Positions 3,417 to 45,594 of a stretch of DNA of 45,594 bases are shown in pieces. Made by a program: the position numbers and the translations under genes. Position 1 is the first letter of the stretch. Each line of letters starts with the position of its first letter. Location of the stretch: positions 76,906-122,499 of the IMG/VR virus record IMGVR_UViG_3300009550_000010. The stretch is one strand, 5' to 3'. The DNA is from a virus. The notes below the pieces were generated by a model. That model had not been told where the DNA came from. It did no database searches and was given only the letters and a program-made list of their open reading frames with translations.

Positions 3417-3672
3417 GATTTGGAAATATGCACTCGGATCATTCTCAGACGACAGAACAAAAGAATATGACAATCACATACTTGTCGTACGGTCTGTTAT
3501 ATTTTTTACCTACCTTATTACTAATTGCTTTATTATTAGCGGAGTAATCCGACACTGGAACGCCAATGAAAAAACTACTGATTGTAACAGGACCTCAAGG
3601 ATCGGGGAATCACCTATTCGCTCGACTCTTTTCGATGCACCCGAACGTGATAGGTTGGGAGAGTCTACATGA
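3400..3672 (+). CDS. Small hypothetical membrane protein of a type seen in cyanophages
   Basis: Likely start ATG 3400 after AAGGA; IWKYALGSFSDD followed by a hydrophobic segment ending GVIRHWN; 3' end overlaps the next gene by 107 nt. Confidence 0.6.
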   Translation: MENAARIWKYALGSFSDDRTKEYDNHILVVRSVIFFTYLITNCFIISGVIRHWNANEKTTDCNRTSRIGESPIRSTLFDAPERDRLGEST

Positions 3673-4835: not shown

Positions 4836-4860
4836 TGTTAATTTACCTTTATCTACGTTG

Positions 4861-5373
4861 TTATTTAGCATAAACAAAAAAGAGTCGTTTATGACCCTGT
4901 TTCACATGTTCAGTTTCAATACACTTTACAGTATAATTGAAACGTGATGCAATATTATTTATCTTTTTTTCTGTCCATGGATACCAAACTATGTCACCAT
5001 AGTCTGCCCAATCATGTGGTATACCAGGATTAACTCTAAATATTGCTTCTTTCCGAAATAATTTATCTATAATTTCCATCTGATTGTCAATCACGCTTTC
5101 ATCACCAAAATTTATAGACCCAAGAGCAAGCACTATATCAAACTTCATAGTGGTACTAAGTTCTTCAAGGGGTAACTTTATGTCAGCACTATTGTTATAT
5201 GGATCTACACCTATGAGTTTATGAATTTTTCCTTTGAATTTATTATACCCACATCCAACATCTAAGACACTAGAAGGTTTCTGAGCATTAACATAATCGA
5301 CCAACTGATAGCCAGAATACTCAAGAGATTCAAAATTTTGGTCTTTCCAGATTCCACTAAAATAAGATTCCAT
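4861..5373 (-). CDS. Class I SAM-dependent methyltransferase
   Basis: Motif I VLDVGCG, IGVDP, FDIVLALGSINF; likely start 5373 (TAATG overlap with upstream stop). Confidence 0.8.
   Translation of the reverse strand: MESYFSGIWKDQNFESLEYSGYQLVDYVNAQKPSSVLDVGCGYNKFKGKIHKLIGVDPYNNSADIKLPLEELSTTMKFDIVLALGSINFGDESVIDNQMEIIDKLFRKEAIFRVNPGIPHDWADYGDIVWYPWTEKKINNIASRFNYTVKCIETEHVKQGHKRLFFVYAK
4862..4868 (-). promoter_or_regulatory. Late promoter box (CTAAATA)
   Basis: tatttag on + strand, upstream of the ferritin-like gene. Confidence 0.55.
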
Positions 5374-6155
5374 TATGCAAAGTCTATAATATCCTGACAA
5401 TTATAAAAACCTATTGAGGTGTCCCAACTAGGTGCTAGTGTCAATGCAGGTCCTATGCAATAGTTTCTTATGTATGCAAGATACTCCTTCTGCCCATTTG
5501 CATCCCACTCAAACCCTAACTTATCTAAGAAGTGTCTAGTTGGACAAGTTATAAAATTTGGTTTTATTGCTTTTCTGAAAAATTGTCTCATTGATAGATT
5601 ATGTTTCTTATTATATTCTTTGAAACTCTCAACATTACGTGGATCATGTTTACCAATCTCCTCATCAGGATCATCCACAACCTGCCATGCTGTGTACTTA
5701 GGATAATTCTTAGCAAATGTCATAGATGTCAACCATCTATCATCACATAGATCTTTATCTCTTAATACAAAGATCATTTTATTATTAGGAAATGTTTTAT
5801 CTAACCATTCTAAGTTCTGTTTCTCACAAAAGAAATGGCACTTGACCATATAATTTTGTTCATTATTCACCTCTGCATATGGTTTCAATGCTTCTTCAAT
5901 AAAACTTTCTTTGGTATGGTATTTTGGTAGGTCTTGAAATCCTTCACCAAATTCACAACCAGGTCCGCTGAAATGACCTTTGTGTTCAACATAATACTTT
6001 GTTTGTACTCTCTCCCACCTTTCATCATTGAAATCTGATGTACTGAAATTGAATTTCTTACAACACCTCAATAGAGAATCTATTTTTGCCCACCCCGAAC
6101 CAGGTATACCAATAAAGAATACTAATTTTTCAGGATTGAATTGAGAAGATGTCAT
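5373..6155 (-). CDS. P-loop sulfotransferase-fold protein (family C, copy 2)
   Basis: VFFIGIPGSGWAKI, VKCHFF, FPNNKMIFVLRD; strong paralogy to 6130..6876; likely start 6155. Confidence 0.6.
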   Translation of the reverse strand: MTSSQFNPEKLVFFIGIPGSGWAKIDSLLRCCKKFNFSTSDFNDERWERVQTKYYVEHKGHFSGPGCEFGEGFQDLPKYHTKESFIEEALKPYAEVNNEQNYMVKCHFFCEKQNLEWLDKTFPNNKMIFVLRDKDLCDDRWLTSMTFAKNYPKYTAWQVVDDPDEEIGKHDPRNVESFKEYNKKHNLSMRQFFRKAIKPNFITCPTRHFLDKLGFEWDANGQKEYLAYIRNYCIGPALTLAPSWDTSIGFYNCQDIIDFA

Positions 6156-6876
6156 TACAATTATGAAAAACAAATGGTGCGTCGAACATTGGTACTTCTG
6201 ATTTGAAAAATTGATGTACCATAATCAATTTATCATATTCCTCTTTCCCTTCATCATCCCATCTATAATCTAATAGATCTAAGAAGGTCTTATTAGGTTG
6301 AATTATAAGACACTCATGATCTCTTACAAATTCTCTAATCATTTTATCATGTCTTTTCATAAATGACCACATCTTATTATAATTTTCAGGATGATCTCGT
6401 ATGAATGTATATTTCATCCAAGCCTTGTATGATGGGTATCGACCAGTAAAATTCATGGCAGCATTCCATCCTTCCCAACATAACTTGGTGTCTCTTAGTA
6501 CCAAGATAATTTTATTATTAGGAAAATTCTTTTTCAACCAATTAAGGTTCTTTGTCTCTGCAAAGAAATGTGACCTAATAAGATAGTTCTGATGATTGAT
6601 CTCAGTGAATGGTCTGAGGCACTCTGCCTTGAAAGATTCTTTAGTGTGATTCTTTTCAAGATCATCAAACCCATCACCAAATTCCATCATAGGATCCCAG
6701 AATGCTCCCTTATGGTGAACACACCCAACCCCTTGTTTTCCTGTCTCTTGTCTGTCTTCTCTTCTGTCAGTATTATTGAGATTCAATTTACCACAACAAC
6801 CTAGTAGTAGTGACAGTTTTGCCCATCCACTACCAGGTATTGCAACATAAAAAATCAACTGCTCGTCAGAAATCAC
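6130..6876 (-). CDS. P-loop sulfotransferase-fold protein (family C, copy 1)
   Basis: IFYVAIPGSGWAKL, IRSHFF, FPNNKIILVLRD (the FPxxKxIxxxRD pattern is typical of sulfotransferase-fold proteins). Confidence 0.6.
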   Translation of the reverse strand: MISDEQLIFYVAIPGSGWAKLSLLLGCCGKLNLNNTDRREDRQETGKQGVGCVHHKGAFWDPMMEFGDGFDDLEKNHTKESFKAECLRPFTEINHQNYLIRSHFFAETKNLNWLKKNFPNNKIILVLRDTKLCWEGWNAAMNFTGRYPSYKAWMKYTFIRDHPENYNKMWSFMKRHDKMIREFVRDHECLIIQPNKTFLDLLDYRWDDEGKEEYDKLIMVHQFFKSEVPMFDAPFVFHNCNDIFSIQS

Positions 6877-34075: not shown

Positions 34076-34100
34076 AAAAAAGGGAGTCGTAAAACTCCCT
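34076..34100 (-). terminator. Rho-independent terminator ending the enzyme-island transcript
   Basis: Minus strand AGGGAGT-tttacg-ACTCCCT followed by a T run. Confidence 0.8.
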
Positions 34101-34354: not shown

Positions 34355-35113
34355 TTATAAGATTCTTGTTTTCTCGTGACCGACTCTGCATTTAGGATCT
34401 ATCCATATTTCATAACCTGCTTTGATTGCATCTAGACAGAAAGAAACGTCTTCACCACACATGTCTTGCACCTCTCCTGACTCAAATACTTGCATCTGAG
34501 GAGCAAACCAAGGGTACTTCATTTCTTTATTCTCAAATACACCATTCTTAATAAGTAACCAACCAAACCCAGTATAATCAACTGTGAACGGTTTGCGTCT
34601 CTTGACAATTCCATCAACCATCTCATGATTCATGACTCCACCATTTTCTTTGAAATCATCTTCTTCCATCCAGTGTGCACATGATGTAGTACGTCCATCT
34701 TCAGTTACATACCATCCACCTGCTAGATCTTTATCCATCCATACAAGACGATAGAACTGTTCGATACCAAATACTATATCACTATCAATCCATAACTGAT
34801 AATCATACTTTAGTTTACCATCCCAAGGTATCTGATCAGGTCCTCGTAATACATTTGCACCAAGACACTTACATCTGGCAAAATTAACCATAGATGAATA
34901 GTCTTGCGATATTTGAATACTTGCACCCTGCTGCACTAACTCGAAACAGAGAGATACAAAGTTTTTCAAATAGATGTATGATACTCCTCTACCTGGTAAA
35001 CAGAAAACTATACTCTTCCCTTTGATAAGAGGTCTAGCATTCTCTATAGAAAATTCATTACTTGCTTCTTCTGGGTTAGGTGCAGAAGATACCACCTTGA
35101 ATCCTTTTGCCAT
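34355..35113 (-). CDS. GT-A fold glycosyltransferase-like protein
   Basis: DxD motif LWIDSDI, VNFAR, YTGFGWLLIK, GEDVSFC, VGHEK. Confidence 0.75.
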   Translation of the reverse strand: MAKGFKVVSSAPNPEEASNEFSIENARPLIKGKSIVFCLPGRGVSYIYLKNFVSLCFELVQQGASIQISQDYSSMVNFARCKCLGANVLRGPDQIPWDGKLKYDYQLWIDSDIVFGIEQFYRLVWMDKDLAGGWYVTEDGRTTSCAHWMEEDDFKENGGVMNHEMVDGIVKRRKPFTVDYTGFGWLLIKNGVFENKEMKYPWFAPQMQVFESGEVQDMCGEDVSFCLDAIKAGYEIWIDPKCRVGHEKTRIL

Positions 35114-35146
35114 TACAAATGATCGCTGTCAATTCATTATACTGAT

Positions 35147-35752
35147 TTATATAGTCGATGTCAATTTACCTATGATATAATCTGCGACTCTCTTATGACC
35201 TTCAATATTGAAGTGGCAGAGCGACCTTTTCTTTGTATCGCTATAATAGTATTTTTTATTTTTTCTTCTACCTAATAATGTTTTTTCCCTATCCATAATG
35301 TTGGAGTTGGCGATTGTCTGCAATTTACCTTTACAATTTCTACTCCAAATATTATCACCGTACACATTATAATATTGTAATAAGAGTAGAGGAATATTTT
35401 TTTTCTCAAACTCCTGTTCTAAAATGTAACGATTCTTGTAAAAATTCAGTGCACCCACTTCATCATTATAATAATTTTCATAAAAAATAGAATCCTTAGT
35501 AGGGATTAGTTTTTTGTTAAAATGTACTCTCTCACAATGTGTCAACATTATAATTGCATGATCACATATATTATTTTCTAAAAATTCCAATGTTCGCATT
35601 GTAATTAAGTCATTACTTGCACAACCTATAGAGTCATTGAGATGATCTGCTTTGAAATGTTTACTTACTAATGTAGAAAACCTCTGACCCTTACGATCAT
35701 CTAACTCACCTCCAAATGTATAAGAGCAACCATTAAAATACAGAAACATCAT
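35147..35752 (-). CDS. SGNH-fold hydrolase/acyltransferase-like protein
   Basis: YFNGCSYTFG, GCASND, CHFNIEGH; likely start 35752 or 35749 after GGAG. Confidence 0.65.
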   Translation of the reverse strand: MMFLYFNGCSYTFGGELDDRKGQRFSTLVSKHFKADHLNDSIGCASNDLITMRTLEFLENNICDHAIIMLTHCERVHFNKKLIPTKDSIFYENYYNDEVGALNFYKNRYILEQEFEKKNIPLLLLQYYNVYGDNIWSRNCKGKLQTIANSNIMDREKTLLGRRKNKKYYYSDTKKRSLCHFNIEGHKRVADYIIGKLTSTI

Positions 35753-37124
35753 ACTTCTCCGAAAATAGTTCTGCATCTTCCCATGTATTCACCATAGGTT
35801 TTCCCTTTATGTTTAATGAAGTATTCAACAATACAGGACAATCTGTTCTTCTATACCACTCCTCCAGTATGGGTCTCAGGATGCTCTCCGATGTCTCAGG
35901 TACCGTTTGTACTCTCGCACTATTATCAACGTGTATACAAGCAGGTATCGCCTTTGGTTGCTTACACTGATAGACATAGGACATGTATCTCGAATGGGAA
36001 GGCATATCAAAGAAGTCCTGACAATGCTCCTCCAAAACCGCAGGTGCAAAGGGTCTGAACTTCTGTCTCTTTTTGATCTCATTTACTCTGTCTTTGTTTG
36101 CAATTTTCCTCGGATCCGCCAATAGACTTCGATTACCGAGAGCACGAGGACCAAACTCAGCACGGCCATTTGCAACGCCAGCGATTCCTTTTTCGATGAG
36201 GCAGTCAACTATTTCCCTTGGATTACAGTAATGTTGTATATTATATCCCAAGTAGGGAGAGAATTCAACCTTGCCACCATATGATAGCAATGCTGCTCCT
36301 AAAGCACCACCTGCGTCACCAGGATTCGGCATGATCCACATATTGTACATTTCCCTCAAACCAGTGTTGCAAACACAGTTGAGTGCCACTCCTCCACCAT
36401 AACAAATGTTCTCACTGTACTTTGCTGCTCTTGCGAATATCTCATTGAGTTCTAATTGCAGTATACGCTCTGCACTCTTTGCAATATCAAACTTATCGTA
36501 AGACTCAGGTATCTTTACACCCTTATGACAATTCTGATGCCTCAGTCTCTCCACCACGTTCATATAAACAGGATTACCATATGCTGCCATACCCATAAAG
36601 ATATATTCTTCATCTAAAGGTCTAAGACCTGCCCATTTGGTTAATGCACTATACCACAGTCCAATAGAGTTGGGATATCGCTGCGACCAGACTTTTTTAT
36701 ACTTCGCCTTACCTTCTACCATCTTTGCAGTCCATATAGACGTACAATCCCATTCTCCGATACTATCAATGACTACACATGCTGCTTCTTCAAATAAAGA
36801 TGTCTGAAACGCTGCTGCAGCGTGAGAAAGGTGATGTGGGAAATATTGAGTCGGTTTGAGTCCTAAATGTCGTTCACTGAAAGTTGTACTGTATTGACCT
36901 GCATAAAACTGTCTTGTTTTCTTCAAAAGCGGTTTTTCGTAAAAAGCAATGTCATCATTACCTTCATGCATATTAAATATCTGTGCAGTGGCAGATGCAG
37001 TGCAATCTAAGTTGCGATCATGTTTTTTCTTGGAATATCGTTCTGAATGTGTTGCAAAACGTATTTTGCCATCGTTTACAACAGCAATTGCAGAATCGTG
37101 GAAACCTTCGCTAAAACCAATCAT
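35733..37124 (-). CDS. O-carbamoyltransferase, NodU/CmcH family
   Basis: GFHDSA, HHLSHAA, DSIGE, GGVALN, GDAGGALG, EFGPRALGNRS, RPFAP, HVDNSARVQTV, LNTSLN. Confidence 0.95.
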   Translation of the reverse strand: MIGFSEGFHDSAIAVVNDGKIRFATHSERYSKKKHDRNLDCTASATAQIFNMHEGNDDIAFYEKPLLKKTRQFYAGQYSTTFSERHLGLKPTQYFPHHLSHAAAAFQTSLFEEAACVVIDSIGEWDCTSIWTAKMVEGKAKYKKVWSQRYPNSIGLWYSALTKWAGLRPLDEEYIFMGMAAYGNPVYMNVVERLRHQNCHKGVKIPESYDKFDIAKSAERILQLELNEIFARAAKYSENICYGGGVALNCVCNTGLREMYNMWIMPNPGDAGGALGAALLSYGGKVEFSPYLGYNIQHYCNPREIVDCLIEKGIAGVANGRAEFGPRALGNRSLLADPRKIANKDRVNEIKKRQKFRPFAPAVLEEHCQDFFDMPSHSRYMSYVYQCKQPKAIPACIHVDNSARVQTVPETSESILRPILEEWYRRTDCPVLLNTSLNIKGKPMVNTWEDAELFSEKYDVSVF

Positions 37125-37765
37125 AATAACTTCATTATATCAGATGCAATCATGATATGCCCAAGTTTATTGGGGTGATTACCTTTTGCTCGTGGATATT
37201 TGGATTTATTCAACTGCAAATCAAAAGGCATCTTAGTTCTCTTGTTTATAGTCATCATTATGTGAGGAATCGACATATTTGTCAACTTGTTTTTTATAAG
37301 ATGAAAAAATAGCATTTCATCAGACTCACCATACTTATCATGGTACAATTCCTCGTAATATCTAATCCACCACTCTTTTCCATCCATAATATTCCCAGTG
37401 CTCATATAATGTTCTTTATCAACCATAATACTGTCCCACTCTGACTGTATTTTTGGTTCTCTACGATATCTTACATTAGGATAAAGTTTTTTTTGTATAT
37501 TTCTCTTATACCTTGTTGCTGTACCTCTTTTATCGTACCATTCAGTTCTACTAGGGTGTGTCATTTGGGCAAGGACTAAATCAAACTCTGAAATATCACT
37601 TTCTAAAAATCTTCTTGCAATACCGTGATTTGATAAACCATTCCAACCTAAATTTGTGACTTCTGCGTTTATTCTACGACCTACAAGAGTACTGAAACAC
37701 TCTTTGGATCTATCATTCAGTTCATCACCATTTGTCCAACTACATCCTATTGTTAATAATTTCAT
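37121..37765 (-). CDS. SGNH-fold protein
   Basis: TIGCSWTNG, GLSNH, AQMTHPSRTEW, NHPNKLGH. Confidence 0.7.
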   Translation of the reverse strand: MKLLTIGCSWTNGDELNDRSKECFSTLVGRRINAEVTNLGWNGLSNHGIARRFLESDISEFDLVLAQMTHPSRTEWYDKRGTATRYKRNIQKKLYPNVRYRREPKIQSEWDSIMVDKEHYMSTGNIMDGKEWWIRYYEELYHDKYGESDEMLFFHLIKNKLTNMSIPHIMMTINKRTKMPFDLQLNKSKYPRAKGNHPNKLGHIMIASDIMKLL

Positions 37766-38279
37766 GAATCTTATTTGCGATGACTTTGTGCCCTATTGTA
37801 GTCGGATGTCGAGTTTCATCCATTGGAAAATTCAAATCAAAGATATTCAGGTCAAATTTCTTTGATTTAGTGAACTTATCCGTTGTTACTATTATACATG
37901 GTATATTGTTGATTGCAAAGTAATCTCGAAGTCCTTCAATAGCGAAATTTTCTTCACAGTCACCATATACATCATCATACATGTTCTCATACCAATATTT
38001 CCATATCTTCTTTCTCTTTTCTGTCAATCTCTTATGATTGAGTGCAATACCAATCTCAACCCACTTTTTTTCGTCATGATACTCATGTCTTGAACGGGAT
38101 GTCAATTGTATAATCGCTAAATCGTAATTTTTAGGACTTTCTTCGATAGTTGTTCTCCATATAGAGCGATTACTATAACCAACCATAGCAATGTTGGTTA
38201 ATTCGGCATTTAACCTACTTGCAAGAAATTTTGGATAGTCTCCAGCAGCAAATGACGAACCGTTAGAAAATATTTTCAT
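37740..38279 (-). CDS. SGNH-fold protein
   Basis: SNGSSFAAG, GYSNR, IQLTSRSRHE, RHPTTIGH; likely start 38279. Confidence 0.7.
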   Translation of the reverse strand: MKIFSNGSSFAAGDYPKFLASRLNAELTNIAMVGYSNRSIWRTTIEESPKNYDLAIIQLTSRSRHEYHDEKKWVEIGIALNHKRLTEKRKKIWKYWYENMYDDVYGDCEENFAIEGLRDYFAINNIPCIIVTTDKFTKSKKFDLNIFDLNFPMDETRHPTTIGHKVIANKIHEIINNRM

Positions 38280-38877
38280 AAACTTCTTTTGCAATCATCT
38301 GATGACCCCTTTTATTAGGATGACCAGTAACATAGTTCTCAGGATGCCACCTTTTACCACCCAATAATTCTCTTACGTTCATTATTGGTTCTTTATCGCA
38401 TAATTCAGACCATGATGAATTATTATATGAACCCAATTTTTTTATATTCTGTATACAGAGGAAAAAGTATCTTATATTTCTTTTTTTAAAATAATTCTCT
38501 AATAAAAATTTGTTTTTATGAAAATTTGCAAAATCATCATCAACATTTTGAAAATTCCTGTAATATTCCAATGATCCTTCGTCTTGATTTTCGGCAGTGA
38601 TGTGAAAATACTTTTTTCTACCTTTTTTCAACAATTCTCTACGAGAAAATTTGGTAAATTGAATTACTGCAATAGATACTGGATTTTTTTCACAAAATTC
38701 TAAAGTAGTCCTTAATATTCCATCATTACTCTTACCGCATTCACCAATACTTTTATAAATGCGAGGTTTTGCACCATCCCTTAGTCCCATTCTGGCGACT
38801 AGATGAGGATAAGCGTCTTTTTCGGGATTTTCAAGTTCATCACCATAGGTAAATGAACATCCATCAAATAATATCAT
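38263..38877 (-). CDS. SGNH-fold protein
   Basis: FDGCSFTYG, GKSND, IQFTKFSRRE, GHPNKRGH. Confidence 0.7.
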   Translation of the reverse strand: MILFDGCSFTYGDELENPEKDAYPHLVARMGLRDGAKPRIYKSIGECGKSNDGILRTTLEFCEKNPVSIAVIQFTKFSRRELLKKGRKKYFHITAENQDEGSLEYYRNFQNVDDDFANFHKNKFLLENYFKKRNIRYFFLCIQNIKKLGSYNNSSWSELCDKEPIMNVRELLGGKRWHPENYVTGHPNKRGHQMIAKEVYENIF

Positions 38878-39473
38878 CTAAATGACCTTTGTTTTATGTG
38901 ATTGATAATGTCTTTCGCAAGAAGATTGTGTCCTAATGAATTTATATGCCCTCCACCATTGGGTTTTTCAGTCGGATATCCATCTATGACAAAATCATAA
39001 TCGATATCTATCTTTGAATTGGGTACAGAAAGAAAGATGAGAGGAACACCCTTTGATTTACAAATACTTTTGATATTATTATACACCATTCTCTCATAAG
39101 CGTTAGCTTGTGTCTCAGAATAGATATTCATGTAGTAGTCTTTCCAAAATCCTTGGTCTATAGAAGACCTATACTTTGGATTTCCAACATAACCAGGATT
39201 TACTTTCATCCACTTCTGTTTTTTGTCAGAATACCATTCAGTTCGATTGCGAAATGACATCTGAATGACCACTAGGTCACACTCATCCAAAAAATTATAG
39301 TTATCAACAGAAATATTCCTAAGAATTCGTAAATTACTTGCCCCTGACCTCGAAAAATTATATTCTTCCGCTTGAAAATGCTCTGATACCTTTCTACTGT
39401 ACCTTTGTGTCTCATAATCTCTCAAATATCCCTTTCCTTCAGTGAAAGAGCATCCATCAAAATAAAATTTCAT
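38874..39473 (-). CDS. SGNH-fold protein
   Basis: FDGCSFTEG, GASNL, IQMSFRNRTEW, GHINSLGH. Confidence 0.7.
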   Translation of the reverse strand: MKFYFDGCSFTEGKGYLRDYETQRYSRKVSEHFQAEEYNFSRSGASNLRILRNISVDNYNFLDECDLVVIQMSFRNRTEWYSDKKQKWMKVNPGYVGNPKYRSSIDQGFWKDYYMNIYSETQANAYERMVYNNIKSICKSKGVPLIFLSVPNSKIDIDYDFVIDGYPTEKPNGGGHINSLGHNLLAKDIINHIKQRSFR

Positions 39474-39628
39474 TCAAAATGGGGTTTTACAATCACTTGA
39501 TCTACAGTATAGCACGATTTTACTCCTGCTTTGATCATTTGTTGAAATGTTACTCGTTTTTTTTCTGCTTCCTCTTCAGAAAGGTGATCAAAAACGAGTT
39601 TTTTGTCTAAGTAAACGTCAAAATCCAT
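39470..39628 (-). CDS. Small hypothetical protein
   Basis: Likely start MDFDVYLD at 39628; stop overlaps the next start; resembles 34151..34354. Confidence 0.6.
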   Translation of the reverse strand: MDFDVYLDKKLVFDHLSEEEAEKKRVTFQQMIKAGVKSCYTVDQVIVKPHFE

Positions 39629-39700
39629 GTTTTGCCAAAATTCGAGTAAACCTTGATGCCACAAACACCATTAAAGTCACTTTGTAGTCATCGGGGGTCT

Positions 39701-40099
39701 TCATTTACCATTACTAATTACAATTCGGGTCTTACAACCCTTAGAACCTCGTACTAAACGCTTTTTAGGACCTTCAGTCTTGACTCTTTGCCACTCTTTT
39801 ATTCTATCATAGCGATCTTCTGTGAAAAAGTACTGTTTGATGTACCATTCTTCCCAGTTTTTATGACCTTTATGACGATTACACTCTTCACAGCAACAAA
39901 TACAGTTAGGTGTCTCGTGTCTGCCCCCTAGAACTTGGGGATGAATGTGATCTAAGGTCATTTGATCACGATGTTCTCCACAATATGCACAAACATGGTT
40001 CCATTTCCCCTTTATATCGTCCTTCCATCTCTTCTTTGCCTCTGATCTCGTTTGTGCCTTCATCTGATACAGGTATTCCTGTGGAGAAGCGAGTAGCAT
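39701..40099 (-). CDS. HNH endonuclease
   Basis: CAYCG...LDHIHP...GG...N...CEECNRHKG zinc-binding HNH pattern. Confidence 0.9.
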   Translation of the reverse strand: MLLASPQEYLYQMKAQTRSEAKKRWKDDIKGKWNHVCAYCGEHRDQMTLDHIHPQVLGGRHETPNCICCCEECNRHKGHKNWEEWYIKQYFFTEDRYDRIKEWQRVKTEGPKKRLVRGSKGCKTRIVISNGK

Positions 40100-40133
40100 A
40101 TGTTCTATGTGTGTGTTCTAACTTATATATGCT

Positions 40134-40217
40134 CTACTCTTCGTAAATATATGGGTCTTCCCTACGTAATTTCCACATTTTATAGCGGAAACGTATCGCT
40201 TTTATTAAACGTTTCAT
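40134..40217 (-). CDS. 27-aa basic peptide (not in ORF track)
   Basis: Hand translation MKRLIKAIRFRYKMWKLRREDPYIYEE; overlaps the 3' end of 40180..40728. Confidence 0.5.
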   Translation of the reverse strand: MKRLIKAIRFRYKMWKLRREDPYIYEE

Positions 40218-40728
40218 AGATTCGGTGTGTAAGTATTCGATGACCAACCCTGTCAGGGTGTTTTGTTGCACCTAAAGGGATGTCAGGAGTATTTAGTTGC
40301 ACATCATAACCGTATTTTGAATCTTTAGAGTTTGTTAAGAGTAACAATTCTGTATTATTTGCTGCAAAATGATCGATGATTGCCTGTCGAAACATAAATT
40401 CATCACTTTCGCCTAATTCTTCACTATAATAGTCTCTATAGTAGTCTAAAAACTTCCTTCCTTTGCCTCTACCAGGATTAATATTCTCCCATTTCCCATC
40501 AATATAGTATTCTGTTCGGTTTTTATACGTCATTTGTATGACTCCAAGTGAAATATTACTCAAATCTTGCTCAATTGTCTTTCGATATATCTTTCGATTG
40601 CTACAACCTGCCTCTGATATGTCTATATAATCTTCATTCCATCTCTTTGCAAGTAGGTTTGCAAACCTTTCGTCTCTATTTTCAAGATTAGCACCGTATG
40701 TCCACGAGTCCCCATTAAATAAAATCAT
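40180..40728 (-). CDS. SGNH-fold protein
   Basis: FNGDSWTYG, GCSNR, IQMTYKNRTEY, KHPDRVGH. Confidence 0.72.
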   Translation of the reverse strand: MILFNGDSWTYGANLENRDERFANLLAKRWNEDYIDISEAGCSNRKIYRKTIEQDLSNISLGVIQMTYKNRTEYYIDGKWENINPGRGKGRKFLDYYRDYYSEELGESDEFMFRQAIIDHFAANNTELLLLTNSKDSKYGYDVQLNTPDIPLGATKHPDRVGHRILTHRIYETFNKSDTFPL

Positions 40729-40780
40729 TCGATCCCTTCATAGTATAATTAAGTAGAGGTTCTTTCAACGGTAACACCGT

Positions 40781-40787
40781 TATTTAG
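40781..40787 (-). promoter_or_regulatory. Late promoter box (CTAAATA) heading the SGNH/carbamoyltransferase/GT gene run
   Basis: tatttag upstream of 40728, followed on the minus strand by a hairpin (AACGGT/ACCGTT arms, 40767-40781). Confidence 0.5.
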
Positions 40788-40813
40788 ACTTCCAAATATT
40801 TCACAAATGTTTA

Positions 40814-40842
40814 TTGAATTTTTGTTTCAGTTATGCTATGAT
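40814..40842 (+). promoter_or_regulatory. Sigma70-type promoter TTGAAT-N17-TATGAT with extended TG
   Basis: -35 at 40814-40819, -10 at 40837-40842, upstream of 40895. Confidence 0.5.
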
Positions 40843-40894
40843 AAAAATTTATCTATCTTTATAATCAAATGATACACCTTATAGTAAGATAACT

Positions 40895-41842
40895 ATGAAA
40901 CCTAGATTCCACATGCATCCTGGTGTTGGATGGGCAGCAACCACGCCTTTCTATTACACATTACAGCATTTGAATCGCTATATGACAACAGGTGTCAATA
41001 AAGAAGTTCAATACTGGGCATTAGCATCAAGAGAAAATACATTTGACTTTCATAGGTATAAAGCAAAAAGAATATCGAATGCATTACACCAAACTGGTTT
41101 AAAAATCAAGAAACCACCTCTTGCAAAAAAATTACATCAAAATGTCTTTACAAAATCGTGGTTAGAGAGATGGTATACCCCACCGTTTACTGTCGAAAAT
41201 TACTTATCATATTATACTCTTCTCAATGACCATAAAGATGACTATGCTGCTGTTGGTGATTTTTCAACCAATAATGTTGATATACCTGATGTATTCTTAT
41301 GTTCGATTGCTGAGAAACTACTTGAACACTTTGATGTCAAAGTAACGATTACATTTGCAGACCCCATCACCCGTTTCTACTATGAAGTCGGTAGATTATG
41401 TGGTATGAGGCAATATGGCACACTTGCTGCTCTTGGAAAACAACAGAAATTATTTAAGAGTTATATTGATAGTAAAAAATTTGAAAGCAGTGTCTTCGAC
41501 AGACATAATGTAGACTATGCACAAACTTACAACAAATATTGCAAGGCATTTGGTAAAGATAATGTATTACCTATCATCATGGAAGAGTTTTGGGAACCAA
41601 AGAAAGAGAAAGAACAAAAAGAGAGACTATCAGAATTCATAAGTTATAGAATAGATAAAATATCACCAAATTTCTTTTGGCCACTGTCACATGCAGATGA
41701 TACATATCTTTTAGATCAATCCAAAAGTGTCAATGAACCACTGACACCCGAACTGATTAAATATGCAAAAGAACCCATGAAACACTTTTATGATGATTGG
41801 GCAAAAGTTCTTCCGATGCCAGAATCATGGAACTATGATTGA
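40895..41842 (+). CDS. Sulfotransferase-fold protein (family A, copy 1)
   Basis: HPGVGWAATTPFYYTL, KE, VGDFS, VKVTITFADPITRFY. Confidence 0.7.
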   Translation: MKPRFHMHPGVGWAATTPFYYTLQHLNRYMTTGVNKEVQYWALASRENTFDFHRYKAKRISNALHQTGLKIKKPPLAKKLHQNVFTKSWLERWYTPPFTVENYLSYYTLLNDHKDDYAAVGDFSTNNVDIPDVFLCSIAEKLLEHFDVKVTITFADPITRFYYEVGRLCGMRQYGTLAALGKQQKLFKSYIDSKKFESSVFDRHNVDYAQTYNKYCKAFGKDNVLPIIMEEFWEPKKEKEQKERLSEFISYRIDKISPNFFWPLSHADDTYLLDQSKSVNEPLTPELIKYAKEPMKHFYDDWAKVLPMPESWNYD

Positions 41843-42788
41843 TTTCTTATTAAATGCAGGGACTGGTTGGTCTGCAACCACACCTTTTTATTTTACTCTT
41901 GCTAAACAGCAAAAGTATTGTCATAGTGGGCATCAAAAGGAGATGGGTTATCTCAAACTCATGAGTAAGAAGTCAAAACAAGATATATCAACTTATAAGC
42001 AAACTATACTTGATAGAACAAGATCTAATGAAGATTGGATCAAAATGGTTGACAATAGAGAGTTTGTATCAAGAGAAGAGACAGAAGAATTACTCAAACC
42101 TCCTTATACCATTGATAGGTATATTGATTACTACCTCAGACTACACGAAAAGACAAAAGGCACCTATCAGGCGGTGGCAGACTTCACAAACTATAACTTT
42201 GAACTACCAGAAGAGTTTCTAATGGAGTGGAGAGATAAGATGTCTCAACACTTCAACGTAAAAGTCACCTTTCAGTTTCGTGACCCGATTCGTCGCTATT
42301 TCTCTGAGGTTGGTAAGTTTATTCAGCACCCTCTTATACTAACAGGTATTGATTCTCATAAGATCAAGCACAATGCCTATGTTAAGTCAAAGCAGCATAT
42401 CAAACTCTTTCGTCACTACATCTCATCATATCCTATCTTCCCACCTGCATACTATACACAGAACATTCAGAAGTTTGTGAGAGTTTTCGGTCAAGAGAGA
42501 GTCTTGCCGATCATTATGGAGCAGTTTTGGAATCCAGAGAGACAAGCAGAACAATGTGAGAGACTTTCGAGATTCCTAGACTATAAGATTACAAAGATAC
42601 ATGAGAATGTCTATTACCCCGACAGAGGAACCAAAGCACCACATTACGTAGGTCTCAAAGATCAATCTGGTAGTGACTTCGAGGACATGACTCCTGAGTT
42701 ATACGAATGGTCTAAACAGTATCTGGGTTTTGTATATTCAGACTGGGAGAAATGTTACGAAACCCTACCAGAGGAATGGAATCGTTGA
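41835..42788 (+). CDS. Sulfotransferase-fold protein (family A, copy 2)
   Basis: NAGTGWSATTPFYFTL, QKE, VADFT, FRDPIRRYFS (3'-PB-like motif); likely start 41835. Confidence 0.72.
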   Translation: MIDFLLNAGTGWSATTPFYFTLAKQQKYCHSGHQKEMGYLKLMSKKSKQDISTYKQTILDRTRSNEDWIKMVDNREFVSREETEELLKPPYTIDRYIDYYLRLHEKTKGTYQAVADFTNYNFELPEEFLMEWRDKMSQHFNVKVTFQFRDPIRRYFSEVGKFIQHPLILTGIDSHKIKHNAYVKSKQHIKLFRHYISSYPIFPPAYYTQNIQKFVRVFGQERVLPIIMEQFWNPERQAEQCERLSRFLDYKITKIHENVYYPDRGTKAPHYVGLKDQSGSDFEDMTPELYEWSKQYLGFVYSDWEKCYETLPEEWNR

Positions 42789-42813
42789 CAGGTAGTAAAG
42801 AATACTTTATAAT
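42785..42813 (+). promoter_or_regulatory. Perfect consensus sigma70 promoter TTGACA-N17-TATAAT
   Basis: TTGACA at 42785-42790, 17-nt spacer, TATAAT at 42808-42813. Confidence 0.9.
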
Positions 42814-42834
42814 AAAAGAGTAACGACGGTTACG

Positions 42835-43000
42835 TCGGGAGTGACTGAATAATCTTTCTGGCAAATGCTGGATAAGGTGATGAGACACAGGTGGTGCTGC
42901 TTCGAGAGAAGAATCGATTTACCAATCGGGTCTCAGGCAAGAACGTTTTTACTCTGTAGTAATGCCCGTTCTTTATTGGTATACAGGAACCCAATCTCCC
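42835..43000 (+). ncRNA. Structured ncRNA, probably the manA RNA motif of cyanophages
   Basis: Closing stem GGGAG/CTCCC plus T run; inner helices TGAGAC/GTCTCA, CTTC-GAGA-GAAG (GNRA loop), CGATT/AATCG, AAGAACG/CGTTCTT, TTACT/AGTAA; core ACAGGTGGTGCTGC recalled from manA (not searched). Confidence 0.75.
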
Positions 43001-43063
43001 TTTTTTCCTCTTTTCATGATGGGACGTTGTTGATTAGAGGAACCCTTTTTTATTTGGAGAGTT

Positions 43064-43153
43064 ATGCCTTTATTTCTAATTGTACTCGGAGCATCTGGAT
43101 TGGGTGCTACTCTTGCACTATACATACTTCGTAAGTACGATCCTCACGCATGA
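43064..43153 (+). CDS. 29-aa single-pass membrane peptide (not in ORF track)
   Basis: GGAG RBS at 43056-43059; MPLFLIVLGASGLGATLALYILRKYDPHA; ATGA overlap with the next gene. Confidence 0.65.
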   Translation: MPLFLIVLGASGLGATLALYILRKYDPHA

Positions 43154-44277
43154 AGAAACCTACATTGTGTATGTTAGCAGGGCATGGTTGGTCTGCAACC
43201 AGTCCTTTATACTACACTTTGGCACACAACCATAATTATTGTCATGGTGGACACTATAAAGAAAATAAGTATCTAGAACATATCTATCATTATAATAGAG
43301 GAGATGAAAAGTTACTAAATGAAAAAAGATTTAGATTTCGCCAACTCTTCAATGGTTTAAAGAGAGATCAAGAAGACGGTCCAAAAGCAATGACATTTGG
43401 TGAGAGAGATAGACCATCTACAGTATTACATACAGGTGGACCTAATGCTCATTGGGATCCAGAATTTGTAAATGATTTCTTTTCACTACCACATACCTTT
43501 GAAAAGTATATTACTTACTATAAGAAACACTACGAAGCAATCAAAGATACTTATTCAGCAGTTTCCGATTTTACTATCAATAATATCTACAAGCCTGAAT
43601 CTTTTATAAACATAACTGCTAGGTATCTAAAACCACATTTTAATGTCAAGGTATTGATGATATATCGTGACCCTGTTCAAAGATTATGGTCAAATATACA
43701 ATTTACATGGTTTCAAAAAAATAAACATAGAGGATGTGTTGACCCATATCATATGTTCTGGAGAAAGATAGCACATCATTACGATGATCCGAAAGAAAAA
43801 GACTATGACTTAAATGTTATCGAAGCTTACACAGAAGGGTATCGAAGATGGAGTAATGCTTTTGGTAAAGAGAATGTTCATAACATAGTCATGGAAGAGT
43901 TGTGGAGTGAGGATAAAGATATCGCTCAAAAGTCAAAGAGAGAGTTATCAGACTTTTTAGAGTATGAAGTTACTGACCTGTTTGCAAACTGTTTTGTACC
44001 TGAACAGGGCTCTAAAGCACCTCATGTTGAACATCTCTCAGATCAATTTATGAGTAATCAAGTTGATCTGTCAGAAGAACAACTCAACACTGCTAGAGCT
44101 TTGATGGATAGAGCATATCTTAGATTTGAGGAAATGTATGGTTATATTCCAAAAACATGGACAGAACTCAAGAGTGTGGAAGTACCAGATCTAACTAATC
44201 CAAATGATTATGATATCGAGGAGGTATTGAGAAGAGATCCATTATCAGGTCCTCAAAAACTTTCTGATTATAAATGA
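43150..44277 (+). CDS. Sulfotransferase-fold protein (family A, copy 3)
   Basis: LAGHGWSATSPLYYTL, YKE, VSDFT, YRDPVQRLWS. Confidence 0.72.
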   Translation: MKKPTLCMLAGHGWSATSPLYYTLAHNHNYCHGGHYKENKYLEHIYHYNRGDEKLLNEKRFRFRQLFNGLKRDQEDGPKAMTFGERDRPSTVLHTGGPNAHWDPEFVNDFFSLPHTFEKYITYYKKHYEAIKDTYSAVSDFTINNIYKPESFINITARYLKPHFNVKVLMIYRDPVQRLWSNIQFTWFQKNKHRGCVDPYHMFWRKIAHHYDDPKEKDYDLNVIEAYTEGYRRWSNAFGKENVHNIVMEELWSEDKDIAQKSKRELSDFLEYEVTDLFANCFVPEQGSKAPHVEHLSDQFMSNQVDLSEEQLNTARALMDRAYLRFEEMYGYIPKTWTELKSVEVPDLTNPNDYDIEEVLRRDPLSGPQKLSDYK

Positions 44278-45014
44278 AACTTATCACACTTGGATGTAGT
44301 TGGACATTTGGTATCGGGTGTGGATATGAAAGAGGTGAGAATATAAAACAATACAAAGCACACTGTACAAGTGAAGAGAATGCTAACAAGTATTCTTTTC
44401 GTGCTCTATTATCAGAGAGACATGGGTACATTAACCATAATCTCTCAAGAGGTGGGTCAAGCAATCAAATGCAGTTTCGGAAAGCGACCAAGTATTTCAC
44501 AGAGCGTCCACAAGAAAAAACTATAGTCTTATGGGGAATCACTTCAACCGCCCGTAATGAAGTCTTTCTGGCGAAACATCATATACTCAAAAATATTGCT
44601 TATAATACCATGTATCGAAAGGTCAATGCAGTGGAGTATGCCGAGAACTTCTACAATCATGAACACGAGGTGAAGATACTCGCACAACGAATGCTTCACT
44701 GGAATCTCTTCTTTGAATCACTGGGTATAGAGAACTATTGGTTTGATACATTCAATACTCACAAGTACCCTTACGAAATACCAAGACTTCTACCAGTAGA
44801 CCTACTCACTCGTATGACAGTTGAGGATCAGACATACCATGAGTCAACATGGCAACCAATAAACGAAATTACTGGAGAGACAAAGAAAACCACTGAAAGA
44901 AGAATACAACTGGGTGTTATCAAAAGTTTACTCAACCCTCACTCAAAACATCCTACCAAGAAGGGTCATGCTATGATAGCAGATATATTTGACAAATGTC
45001 TAAACCTAAGTTAA
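44274..45014 (+). CDS. SGNH-fold protein
   Basis: TLGCSWTFG, GGSSNQ, WGITSTARNE, KHPTKKGH. Confidence 0.7.
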   Translation: MKLITLGCSWTFGIGCGYERGENIKQYKAHCTSEENANKYSFRALLSERHGYINHNLSRGGSSNQMQFRKATKYFTERPQEKTIVLWGITSTARNEVFLAKHHILKNIAYNTMYRKVNAVEYAENFYNHEHEVKILAQRMLHWNLFFESLGIENYWFDTFNTHKYPYEIPRLLPVDLLTRMTVEDQTYHESTWQPINEITGETKKTTERRIQLGVIKSLLNPHSKHPTKKGHAMIADIFDKCLNLS

Positions 45015-45594
45015 CTCTTATTGGTGGATATGGTTGGGCAGCAACTTCTCCTCTCATGTATACTCTTCAAAGGAATGCCAAGTATACTCATTTTGGTTAT
45101 ACAAAACATTTTAGATACTTAGGAAATCAATCAGACAAGGAAAAGAAGAAGGTATCTTATATCTACAACAAGGTTTGCAATGGGACTTGGGAAAACTTCA
45201 TGAGTGAAGAACCAGGCACTCATCGAATGAATCTAACGAGGGATCTTGAACCTCTTTATGATTTTCCTCGTAAACACTTTACTCAACTTATCACTGGTAA
45301 TCCTACTATCTCTAAGTACATGGATTACTATCATGCACTTCATGATCATGTCATCTCCAAGGGTTATAAGTCTGTAGGTGATGGTTACTCAGGTTATCAA
45401 TACTACAGAAAAGAGTTTAGTCAATTCTATCGGATACTTATGTCTGAGTTTGATGTCAAGTTTCTCGTGATTGTCAGAGATCCTGTTCGTCGTGCTTTCT
45501 CAAATTATCTTGCTAAAGTTCAAAAGTCTACAGACCGAAAACGTAAAAATCTACCACTACCATTCAAAGTTAATGATTATATAAAAGATCTAAA
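44996..45594 (+). CDS. Sulfotransferase-fold protein (family A, copy 4), partial; runs off window
   Basis: Hand translation MSKPKLTLIGGYGWAATSPLMYTL...SVGDG...DVKFLVIVRDPVRRAFS, no stop to window end. Confidence 0.72.
   Translation, partial: MSKPKLTLIGGYGWAATSPLMYTLQRNAKYTHFGYTKHFRYLGNQSDKEKKKVSYIYNKVCNGTWENFMSEEPGTHRMNLTRDLEPLYDFPRKHFTQLITGNPTISKYMDYYHALHDHVISKGYKSVGDGYSGYQYYRKEFSQFYRILMSEFDVKFLVIVRDPVRRAFSNYLAKVQKSTDRKRKNLPLPFKVNDYIKDL

Follow-up and report, generated by a model that had tools for sequence, protein, structure and literature searches.

Why does a phage keep a row of diverged, similar-looking enzymes beside a single carbamoyltransferase gene? The window analysed here, a stretch of 45,594 nucleotides from a marine T4-like phage, encodes seven SGNH-like paralogues of 182-246 aa with pairwise identities of 19-32%, labelled W1 to W7 by window position. 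An earlier note, made from the sequence alone, had proposed that they form a distinct cytoplasmic SGNH subfamily with a Ser-His dyad. Its open reading frames all lie where it placed them, and its count of seven is right for the window; the genome holds at least eight copies, one of them outside the window. The array and its surroundings comprise:

34081-34100, minus strand: terminator-like hairpin (8-bp stem and T run) between the glycosyltransferase and gp25 genes; a pattern match only
34355-35113, minus strand: GT-A-like glycosyltransferase, 252 aa, DSD motif at 110-112, phrog_1574 at 6e-114; last gene of the minus-strand arm
35147-35776, minus strand: W1, SGNH-like paralogue, 209 aa; GCS; HFNIEGH; His for Glu in the RxE block
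35733-37124, minus strand: NodU/NolO/TobZ-type O-carbamoyltransferase, 463 aa; Pfam Carbam_trans_N at 1e-33, Carbam_trans_C at 5e-51
37121-37765, minus strand: W2, SGNH-like paralogue, 214 aa; GCS; 4-nt overlap with the carbamoyltransferase start
37740-38294, minus strand: W3, SGNH-like paralogue, 184 aa, TTG start; GSS; Glu at His -3
38263-38877, minus strand: W4, SGNH-like paralogue, 204 aa; GCS; 49% identity to the eighth copy
38874-39473, minus strand: W5, SGNH-like paralogue, 199 aa; GCS; HINSLGH
39701-40099, minus strand: free-standing HNH endonuclease gene between W5 and W6; Pfam HNH_5 at 1.9e-10
40180-40728, minus strand: W6, SGNH-like paralogue, 182 aa; canonical GDS; heads the minus-strand arm; copy chosen for AlphaFold2
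40895-41842, plus strand: sulfotransferase-like paralogue, 315 aa; alignment A3
41790-42788, plus strand: sulfotransferase-like paralogue, 332 aa; alignment A3; overlaps the preceding paralogue
42785-42813, plus strand: perfect sigma-70 consensus (TTGACA-17-TATAAT), 6 nt upstream of the manA RNA; a pattern match only
42819-43005, plus strand: manA RNA (RF01745), 177 bits (gathering score 55.2); forms the leader of the three genes that follow
43150-44277, plus strand: sulfotransferase-like paralogue, 375 aa; Pfam Sulfotransfer_1 at E 2.7e-4, below cut-off (20.8 bits; cut-off 22)
44274-45014, plus strand: W7, SGNH-like paralogue, 246 aa; GCS; overlaps the flanking sulfotransferase-like genes by 4 nt and 19 nt
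44996-45592, plus strand: fourth sulfotransferase-like paralogue, cut off at the contig end
G000:C1:73421-74041, minus strand: eighth SGNH-like copy, 3 kb outside the window and flanked by the genes for the terminase subunits

Five paralogues had been said to form an overlapping chain with the carbamoyltransferase, and the measured overlaps bear this out: along W5-W4-W3-W2-carbamoyltransferase-W1 they are 4, 32, 26, 4 and 44 nt, the last being shared between W1 and the 3' end of the carbamoyltransferase gene. Unlike these chained copies, W7 is coupled to sulfotransferase-like genes. The HNH gene is probably a mobile insertion that interrupts the array and stands outside the pathway. Since the window ends where the contig ends, the plus-strand arm of the cluster is truncated. 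The array is not a chance pattern, as a profile built from the seven recovers the eighth copy (E 1.5e-44) and 1,970 cluster representatives at E<=1e-10, nearly all from uncultured phages. The family is large, phage-borne, unnamed and uncharacterised.

Among its 150 best relatives, 46 match the uncharacterised Pfam family DUF6071 (PF19547), down to E 2.3e-21, and 19 match Lipase_GDSL_2; UniProt attaches automatic SGNH names to some members. DUF6071 is a longer sister clade of the window's proteins, homologous and with the same conserved blocks, but of about 250-290 aa against 182-246 aa, and the copies of this phage stay below the DUF6071 Pfam cut-off (best 12.9 bits, for the eighth copy, against 27). 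The copies of Ralstonia phage RsoM2USA are long (284 aa in the one tested), and the relatives P0201 and P0198, of the 280-aa class, match DUF6071. Our literature search found no paper that mentions DUF6071. The proposed subfamily is not wholly unknown, given this sister clade, the UniProt names and precedents in CE2, SASA and PatB1. Every paralogue shares 55-86% identity with a protein from another contig, against only 28-49% with its best paralogue; by these identities the duplications are old, the copies retained and orthologues present elsewhere. Such a history fits the suggestion that each paralogue serves its own acceptor.

The AlphaFold2 model of W6 (pLDDT 94.8, pTM 0.90) finds only SGNH hydrolases as its top PDB matches (Foldseek; E 3.5e-6 to TesA and CE2), and PatB is among its SGNH structural matches. 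VIA-align superimposes the model on TesA 4jgg (Z 15.9, rmsd 2.3 Å, 146 residues) and on CE2 2w9x (Z 14.3), and carbohydrate acetylesterases match too; in profile alignments, Blocks I, II and V fall on those of 6v8i, 6hfz and 9otv. Predicted structure and structural matches agree on the SGNH fold, which is an ordinary one. The best matches are TesA-type thioesterases/lysophospholipases rather than carbohydrate esterases, with Z scores nearly tied (15.9 against 14.3); function cannot be read from the shared fold.

The active-site residues are more particular. Aligning the seven gives nine invariant columns (G16, S18, G22, S54, N55, R83, H188, G193 and H194 in W1 numbering), and the blocks common to the paralogues are G[CSD]S, SN, [TS]xxxRx[EH] and H[PIF]xxxGH. 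Here the motifs of the earlier note proved accurate. The nucleophile block G[CSD]S[FWY] reads GCS in W1, W2, W4, W5 and W7, GSS in W3 and GDS in W6; the next residue is F, W or Y. Cys thus takes the place of Asp before the Ser in five of seven. H[PIF]xxxGH occurs in all seven and the [TS]xxxRxE-like motif as such in six, W1 having His for Glu. The DxxH Asp is missing throughout: the residue at His -3 is S, K, E, V, G, A and H in W1-W7, with Glu in W3 only. Between the RxE block and the His lie 90-136 residues, and alignment gaps are concentrated there. When conservation was counted over 150 relatives, S8 was kept in 149, H157 and R71 in 147 each, N44 in 144 and G41 in 134; E73, and likewise a Cys directly before the nucleophile Ser, were found in 119. 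Judged from this conservation, the paralogues are likely to be active enzymes. Across the family, these relatives lack the Block III Asn as well as the Block V Asp; R71 (147/150) and E73 (119/150) occupy the expected Block III position, and either could complete the active site. The loss of both canonical residues is upheld, but a strict Ser-His dyad is not. As proposed, the seven look cytoplasmic: neither a signal peptide nor a membrane segment was detected in any of them (19-residue Kyte-Doolittle scan), since G[CSD]S begins at residue 6-16 and no 19-residue mean exceeds 0.93.

The carbamoyltransferase matches phrog_1601 at 3e-89 but is not a NodU orthologue, as it scores 141 bits against a cut-off of 1000 in the NCBIfam NodU model. 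The product of 34355-35113 gives weak matches to glycosyltransferase PHROGs, and its low-confidence model (pLDDT 59), whose top Foldseek matches are all GT-A glycosyltransferases (E about 1e-6), makes it a likely GT-A glycosyltransferase-like protein. The A3 alignment profile of the sulfotransferase-like proteins matches sulfotransferase 3rnl at 1.7e-8 and heparan sulfate 3-O-sulfotransferase 5 at 0.014. The neighbours in the window are sugar-type enzymes, by the GT-A fold matches and by a sulfotransferase profile that leads to carbohydrate sulfotransferases. Elsewhere, family members keep company with sugar-nucleotide genes: they adjoin a CTP_transf_3 cytidylyltransferase, or epimerase/GDP-mannose dehydratase and radical SAM-SPASM genes, or lie near a UDP-glucose/GDP-mannose dehydrogenase. 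The manA RNA is about 88-91% identical to its cyanomyovirus counterpart; it is a riboswitch candidate whose ligand is not known.

Linkage was followed in 80 contigs with a related carbamoyltransferase. An SGNH-like copy lies within 10 kb of it in 74 (1-9 copies each) and directly downstream, in the W1 position, in 54; a GT-A-like gene is present in 79 and sulfotransferase-like genes in 63. Linkage among these contigs largely reflects shared descent. Two distant phages show it as well: in RsoM2USA (344 kb), whose carbamoyltransferase is 41% identical to the window's, all three genomic copies lie within about 5 kb upstream of that gene, the nearest overlapping its start, and the single copy of Pelagibacter phage Mosig lies 2 kb away, in a cluster annotated with aminotransferase, epimerase and radical-SAM-type genes. 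The association is not obligatory, as S-SSM5 and S-SSM7 have the carbamoyltransferase and lack the SGNH-like family, and the family occurs with no carbamoyltransferase nearby in C48C1 (55 kb away), L098, L101 and L105.

Building on what the analysis shows, namely the fold, the conserved residues, the paralogy, the age of the duplications and the gene linkage, we propose, with a probability of roughly 0.5, that the paralogues tailor a glycan in the cytoplasm as Ser-His esterases or transacylases, with a separate substrate for each; activity, chemistry and glycan substrate are the inferred parts of this proposal. The nucleophile would most likely be the Block I Ser and the base the Block V His. 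A near-invariant Arg in the loop that follows strand 3, mostly accompanied by a Glu at +2, replaces the Block III Asn; an invariant Ser-Asn is added to Block II, and the Arg and/or this Asn may complete the oxyanion hole or bind an anionic substrate. The setting would be a phage glycan-tailoring cassette in which a GT-A glycosyltransferase and an O-carbamoyltransferase are joined by four sulfotransferase-like enzymes, with part of the cassette lying behind the manA leader RNA. The paralogues would take off or transfer O-linked acyl or carbamoyl groups, each at a different sugar position or acceptor; the copies diverge chiefly in the two loop regions that form the SGNH substrate cleft. Virion proteins, host envelope precursors or a nucleotide sugar could carry the target glycan. 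Known SGNH O-acetyltransferases are extracytoplasmic and have a membrane partner, which counts against this proposal.

The copies might instead be dedicated partners of the carbamoyltransferase, the one next to it serving either as a carbamate hydrolase in the manner of an editing decarbamoylase or as a shuttle that passes carbamoyl via the Ser to an acceptor. The overlapping copy directly downstream in 54/80 contigs, the three RsoM2USA copies that abut the carbamoyltransferase, and saxitoxin clusters, which pair SxtI and sulfotransferases with a GDSL-like SxtL proposed as a decarbamoylase (PMC2679770), speak for such a partnership. We regard it as unlikely, however: most copies do not adjoin the carbamoyltransferase (W7 lies with sulfotransferase-like genes, the eighth between terminase genes), many relatives have none nearby, the SxtL role is itself a proposal, and a shuttle is unnecessary because TobZ-type enzymes pass carbamoyl directly from carbamoyl-AMP to the acceptor (PMC8670742). 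That E. coli and Pseudomonas TesA/TAP lead the structural matches (Z 15-15.9), and that the phage proteins are likewise soluble, single-domain and of similar size, would suit acyl-CoA thioesterases/lysophospholipases that remodel host lipids or acyl pools, apart from glycans. This is quite unlikely, as no linked lipid-metabolism genes occur in the contexts seen, where the neighbours are sugar-type enzymes, TesA keeps the full S-G-N-H set with its Asp, and a general lipase role accounts poorly for eight old paralogues.

Hypermodification of DNA or nucleotides, in which the carbamoyltransferase acts on a hydroxymethyl-pyrimidine or DNA-linked sugar and the SGNH enzymes then attach groups to the modified base or cut them back, appears distinctly improbable. 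DNA decoration is common in T4-like phages and radical SAM genes often adjoin the family, but DNA modification is not known to involve sulfotransferases. A phage carbamoyltransferase of the same family does make 5-carbamoyloxymethylcytosine on DNA and 5hmdCTP (PMC8670742). That activity, however, accompanies a neighbouring dCMP hydroxymethylase of the thymidylate synthase family, and PF00303 has no match in this contig or in a 100%-complete 192 kb relative; in unmodified contigs the carbamoyltransferases adjoin glycosyltransferases, as here (PMC8670742). Least probable is the tailoring of a small metabolite, whether secreted or kept inside the cell (aminoglycoside-like, Nod-factor-like or radical-SAM-modified) rather than a polymer or virion. 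The combination of carbamoyl-, sulfo- and glycosyl-transferases with an esterase mirrors natural-product and Nod-factor tailoring, radical SAM/SPASM genes adjoin family members, and a 602-aa radical SAM protein in BFVD has a domain matching the W6 model; yet the cassette is located among virion genes, and no scaffold genes (NRPS, PKS, precursor peptide) or exporter were found among the window ORFs scanned.

Among known systems, TesA/TAP (E. coli thioesterase I 1ivn; Pseudomonas TesA 4jgg) is the closest structural match (Z 15-15.9, rmsd 2.3-2.6 Å, ~146 residues), comparable in size and single-domain. However, TesA retains all of Ser-Gly-Asn-His together with the DxxH Asp, a set altered in the phage proteins; it is periplasmic, acts on acyl thioesters and lipids, and is 13-18% identical to them. 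CE2 esterases (CtCE2 2wao, CjCE2B 2w9x) share the fold (Z 13.4-14.3) and act on sugar O-acetyl groups, and many have a Ser-His dyad without the Block V Asp (PMC9487903). They are secreted, retain the Block III Asn and have an N-terminal beta-sandwich domain, whereas the phage proteins are cytoplasmic and single-domain, with Arg-x-Glu replacing that Asn. SGNH active sites without Block III Asn occur in the SASA family, which uses a residue adjoining the Ser instead, and in B. cereus PatB1 (DHHW family), where an Arg guanidinium sits in the oxyanion hole (PMC9487903). The PatB1 Arg belongs to Block II, whereas the phage Arg comes after strand 3, at the place of Block III. PatB1 and OatA-type enzymes are extracytoplasmic with MBOAT or AT3 partners, which the phage set lacks: neither this contig nor a complete relative has an AT3 or MBOAT gene. 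In Nod-factor tailoring, NodU/NolO, NodH and NodC are part of the pathway's enzyme set. That set and the saxitoxin set (SxtI, SxtN, SxtL) show the same combination of enzyme classes as the phage cassette, namely an O-carbamoyltransferase, a sulfotransferase, and a GDSL-like hydrolase or GT-A glycosyltransferase. The likeness is an analogy of classes without orthology, and the phage cassette stands apart in its viral setting, its eight SGNH copies and its lack of scaffold genes.

The seven SGNH-like open reading frames W1-W7 lie at the positions described in the earlier note, and nine columns are invariant in their alignment. The nucleophile block reads GCS in five copies, GSS in one and GDS in one, H[PIF]xxxGH occurs in 7/7, and no copy has an Asp three residues before the His, a position taken by Glu in W3. 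The [TS]xxxRxE stretch at the Block III position (the RxE block) is present in six copies, and in W1 His replaces the Glu; the motifs are thus all as the earlier note described them. Neighbours in the overlapping chain W5-W4-W3-W2-carbamoyltransferase-W1 overlap by 4-44 nt. As had been noticed, signal peptides are lacking: the GxS starts at residue 6-16 and there is no hydrophobic segment (highest 19-residue Kyte-Doolittle mean 0.93), features from which the paralogues are predicted to be cytoplasmic. A further copy precedes the window by about 3 kb and lies between the genes for the two terminase subunits, small and large:

G000:C1:73421-74041 of the source contig (L009:11407-12042 in the retrieved locus), minus strand: eighth SGNH-like paralogue, 211 aa, 49% identical to W4.

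An unknown 193-aa ORF accompanies this paralogue as an insertion between the terminase genes, and a radical-SAM-like ORF (L009:8303-8935) is found between the sheath and terminase genes. Identity among the eight copies is 19-49%, against 55-86% between each copy and its counterparts on other contigs, and a complete relative has about 10 copies, a pattern that marks the duplications as old and retained. Divergence in length and sequence is strongest between the RxE block and the His (spacing 90-136 residues), a region that contains loops lining the cleft in SGNH enzymes; it would fit a different substrate for each paralogue.

Over 150 aligned family proteins, the loss of the canonical Block V Asp and Block III Asn, first noticed in the window copies, proves to be family-wide.

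Residue counts among 150 relatives, in W6 numbering
Position 6: Gly, 150/150
Position 7: Cys 119, Asp 17, of 150
Position 8: Ser, 149/150
Position 12: Gly, 147/150
Position 36: Asn, 143/150
Position 41: Gly, 134/150
Position 43: Ser, 128/150
Position 44: Asn, 144/150
Position 71: Arg, 147/150
Position 73: Glu, 119/150
Position 157: His, 147/150
Position 158: Pro, 139/150
Position 163: His, 139/150

The GxS nucleophile of Block I stands just after strand 1 and aligns to the GDS of 6v8i and 9otv, and G41, aligned to the N-x-G-x-G-G of 6hfz and 6v8i, is the Block II Gly of the oxyanion hole, followed by an extra conserved Ser-Asn. At Block III (GxND), the loop after strand 3 carries T-x-x-x-R-x-E and no conserved Asn. 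This loss excludes the canonical SGNH type but not the superfamily, as the accepted members SASA and PatB1 are also without the Block III Asn. Only the His half of the Block V DxxH is kept: Pro, Lys, Ser, Asn or Glu stands three residues before it, with no conservation of Asp, and it is followed by Pro and xxxGH, a pattern common to many SGNH enzymes. The conservation of both the Ser nucleophile and the His base argues for active enzymes, in which Glu73 may restore the triad from another position and Arg71 or Asn44 may form the oxyanion hole.

An SGNH fold, and not some other fold, is predicted for W6 by AlphaFold2 (pLDDT 94.8, with the 150 relatives as alignment). The model has the three-layer alpha/beta/alpha architecture and central parallel sheet of SGNH/GDSL proteins and matches TesA (4jgg) with a VIA-align Z of 15.9 and an rmsd of 2.3 Å over 146 residues. 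Z reaches at least 8 for 201/1000 chains compared, and the 50 listed are SGNH/GDSL-type esterases, lipases and acyltransferases; all top PDB matches are SGNH hydrolases, PatB and carbohydrate acetylesterases such as the CE2 esterases (Z 14.3) among them. In HMM alignments, Blocks I, II and V fall on those of solved SGNH enzymes. A profile of the seven paralogues matches 8,377 cluster representatives (50%-identity clusters) at E≤1e-3, 1,970 at E≤1e-10 and 81 at E≤1e-30, throughout single-domain proteins of about 170-280 aa. No longer fused forms appeared in a weak search of a 5.8-billion-protein set; BFVD, by contrast, holds a 602-aa radical SAM protein and a 432-aa protein, each with a domain matching the W6 model. 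The former (A0A6J5LTW5, uncultured phage; E 1.9e-8, TM 0.72 for the SGNH-model domain), together with radical SAM/SPASM genes that adjoin family members in three unrelated contigs (L101, L105, L095), hints at a recurring radical SAM/SGNH partnership.

Among the 150 relatives, 46 match the Pfam family DUF6071 (PF19547) at E≤0.01, 19 match Lipase_GDSL_2 and 13 Lipase_GDSL. The genome's own best DUF6071 score, 12.9 bits for the eighth copy, misses the cut-off of 27 bits, and a match to one of the seven window proteins has an E of 0.017. As so many relatives pass while the window proteins score below the cut-off, the latter belong to a shorter sister clade of DUF6071 without a Pfam model. Scanning the seven against Pfam gives nothing significant (Lipase_GDSL_2 at ~0.011 in two of seven), against NCBIfam no match, and against PHROGs one weak match, of W3 to phrog_18434 (E 0.0063, unknown function). 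A literature search found no mention of DUF6071, and the retrievable names of family members are only 'hypothetical protein' or the automatic label 'SGNH_hydrolase domain'. At BLAST sensitivity the family is nearly absent from deposited and isolate phages: tblastn against 50,697 deposited phage genomes gives no match for W6 and only AG-345-D19 and C48C1 for W4, and RsoM2USA_200 finds only itself among deposited phage genomes. A related-locus search with W6 alone returned just two near-identical contigs.

The source is an IMG/VR virus contig of 122.5 kb, estimated as 59% complete, of which the window is the final 45.6 kb. T4-type virion genes lie within the window (gp25 and gp6 baseplate proteins, gp8, giant fibre-like ORFs), portal, sheath, terminase, gp15 and neck genes just upstream, and nucleotide-level matches of the window are only to Prochlorococcus and Synechococcus myoviruses; gene content and matches together indicate a T4-like myovirus of marine origin, not yet in culture and probably a cyanophage. 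In the 45.6-kb window of mostly virion genes, the T4 late-promoter motif TATAAATA has 0 occurrences where ~5 are expected by chance, and by this count the phage's late promoters must differ from those of T4. Between fibre genes, window 2706-6876 holds a second enzyme cassette with weak matches to Sulfotransfer_3 (6130-6876) and to diiron PaaA/PaaC-like proteins (4161-4877), which may be part of the same tailoring system.

The main cassette has two arms. The minus arm consists of W6, an HNH endonuclease, W5, W4, W3, W2, the carbamoyltransferase, W1 and a GT-A-like gene, in this order. From a 166-bp AT-rich spacer the plus arm diverges, comprising two sulfotransferase-like genes, a sigma-70 consensus, a manA RNA, a third sulfotransferase-like gene, W7 and a fourth sulfotransferase-like gene, inside which the contig ends and truncates the arm. 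For W7 the coupled neighbours are sulfotransferase-like genes, not the carbamoyltransferase. The features outside the SGNH array proper are:

34081-34100, minus strand: strong terminator-like hairpin between the GT-A-like gene and gp25.
35136-35164, minus strand: second perfect sigma-70 consensus, inside the W1 3' end and just upstream of the GT-A-like gene.
35733-37124, minus strand: carbamoyltransferase; Carbam_trans_N (Kae1-like) 117.3 bits versus 24, Carbam_trans_C (YrdC-like) 173.1 versus 27.
39701-40099, minus strand: free-standing HNH endonuclease, splitting the SGNH array between W5 and W6.
42785-43005, plus strand: perfect promoter consensus TTGACA-17-TATAAT, then the manA RNA 6 nt on.

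The hairpin that divides the GT-A-like gene from gp25 suggests separate transcription of the enzyme arm and the baseplate genes. With both Carbam_trans domains above the Pfam cut-offs, the carbamoyltransferase is of NodU/NolO/TobZ type; as a NodU equivalog it is out (141 bits, cut-off 1000). For the GT-A-like gene the model is of low confidence, its structural matches are uniformly GT-A enzymes, and a DSD motif is present. Among the four sulfotransferase-like paralogues of the plus arm, a match to Pfam Sulfotransfer_1 scores 20.8 bits, below the cut-off of 22, and their profile matches the sulfotransferase 3rnl (1.7e-8) across the RDPVxR block (RDPxxR, 3'-phosphate-binding) and also heparan sulfate 3-O-sulfotransferase 5. 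A 17-nt hairpin-forming sequence, TGGTTGGTCTGCAACCA, occurs at 41864-41880 and 43185-43201 (plus strand), near the 5' ends of two of these genes; since it encodes the conserved G-W-S-A-T motif of both, its recurrence probably follows from conservation at the coding level. The HNH endonuclease, probably a homing-type insertion, could help to shuffle the cassette.

The manA RNA (RF01745) belongs to its family with 177.1 bits against a gathering threshold of 55.2 over the full model length (1-192), is ~88-91% identical to copies in many cyanomyoviruses and leads an operon of sulfotransferase-like, SGNH-like and sulfotransferase-like genes. Such RNAs are riboswitch candidates that in cyanophages precede genes for sugar metabolism, among others (PMC2864571), and the position directly upstream of a sulfotransferase/SGNH operon is a new gene association for this orphan riboswitch candidate.

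The linkage of SGNH-like genes to the carbamoyltransferase extends to other genomes. Of 80 viral contigs whose carbamoyltransferase shares 66-98% identity with that of the source phage, 74 have 1-9 copies within 10 kb, and in 54 the gene immediately downstream of the carbamoyltransferase, on the same strand, is such a copy; the GT-A-like gene (252 aa) is found in 79/80 and sulfotransferase-like genes in 63/80. Shared descent accounts for much of this linkage, which is independently supported by two distant phages. In the 344-kb Ralstonia jumbo phage RsoM2USA (carbamoyltransferase 41% identical to the source phage's), the genome's three copies are all found in the ~5 kb preceding the carbamoyltransferase gene, and the closest of them overlaps the start of that gene; Pelagibacter phage Mosig has a single copy 2 kb away, in a cluster annotated with aminotransferase, epimerase and radical-SAM-type genes. 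The linkage is not obligatory: in C48C1, 55 kb separate the copy from the carbamoyltransferase gene, and in S-SSM5 and S-SSM7 a carbamoyltransferase occurs with no SGNH-like copy. Elsewhere, family members adjoin genes of sugar-nucleotide metabolism: a CMP-sugar-type cytidylyltransferase, epimerase/GDP-mannose dehydratase and radical SAM-SPASM genes, or a UDP-glucose/GDP-mannose dehydrogenase.

The reading that we prefer, with a probability of about 0.5, is that the paralogues are cytoplasmic Ser-His esterases or transacylases, which would tailor a glycan jointly with the glycosyl-, carbamoyl- and sulfo-transferases of the cassette. The earlier note had seen in them a distinct cytoplasmic subfamily of site-specific acyl or carbamoyl transferases or editing esterases, with a different acceptor for each; its observation is confirmed and this interpretation is supported in part, the cytoplasmic clade standing and its function being one that we infer. 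That the paralogues serve the carbamoyltransferase in particular, as decarbamoylase or carbamoyl shuttle, is rather unlikely; a decarbamoylase role has been proposed for SxtL. A complex prediction for the carbamoyltransferase with W1 (score 0.00, mark 0.32) bears on binding neither way. Hydrolysis of lipids or thioesters in the manner of TesA, to which the W6 model aligns, is improbable. Hypermodification of DNA, on the model of the 5-carbamoyloxymethylcytosine system (PMC8670742), is improbable and is weakened by the search for dCMP hydroxymethylase (PF00303, thymidylate synthase family), which had no match in the source contig (59% complete) or the 100%-complete relative, and carbamoylation of hydroxymethylcytosine is put low for this reason; small-metabolite tailoring is very improbable.

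The glycan-tailoring reading has a more elaborate form, which is tentative and itself unlikely, namely that a glycan made by the phage receives its O-substituents (acyl, carbamoyl, sulfate) in a combinatorial pattern, which the SGNH paralogues would write and edit jointly with the carbamoyltransferase and the sulfotransferase paralogues. Each SGNH paralogue would serve one position, the manA RNA, sensing a sugar metabolite, would control the plus arm, and the most plausible carriers of the glycan would be the fibres and baseplate of the virion itself or a precursor of the host surface. If this held, the phage would encode a glycan-code system whose basis is a cytoplasmic SGNH clade with an Arg-based active site. 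If the enzymes are active glycan tailors, uncultured marine T4-like phages hold eight to ~ten position-specific ester-editing enzymes, and ester editing alongside carbamoyl- and sulfo-transferases would suggest that phage-made glycan chemistry is far richer than known. Possible roles are receptor binding, stability and escape from grazers or defences on virions, and superinfection exclusion on host envelopes. As the family is large (1,970 representatives), has no studied member and is nearly absent from cultured phages, one biochemical characterisation would annotate thousands of proteins.

Among known types, a periplasmic O-acetyltransferase of the PatB/OatA/OafB type is rejected, there being no signal peptide, fused membrane domain or AT3/MBOAT gene; PF01757 and PF03062 had no match in the source contig or the 100%-complete relative, the controls of this search did match, and a PatB/OatA-type membrane partner may come from the host. 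CE2 carbohydrate esterases combine an N-terminal beta-sandwich domain with an SGNH domain that has the Block III Asn, whereas the phage proteins are single-domain, with GxS at residues 6-16 and without this Asn. In the 5-hydroxymethylcytosine carbamoyltransferase system (PMC8670742) a dCMP hydroxymethylase co-occurs, for which the source contig and the 100%-complete relative gave no match. Each single deviation of the active site has a precedent: many CE2 esterases rely on a Ser-His dyad, SASA enzymes are without the Block III Asn, and B. cereus PatB1 has an Arg in the oxyanion hole (PMC9487903). Their combination with a Cys before the Ser and a Block II Ser-Asn is particular to this clade, and with its Cys-Ser, Ser-Asn and Arg-x-Glu but no Asp the active site offers a natural test of the extent to which SGNH catalytic machinery can be remodelled. 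The fold is thus ordinary, and what sets the clade apart is its predicted cytoplasmic location, Arg-x-Glu in place of Asn, the missing Asp, and multi-copy arrays in phage glycan-type cassettes.
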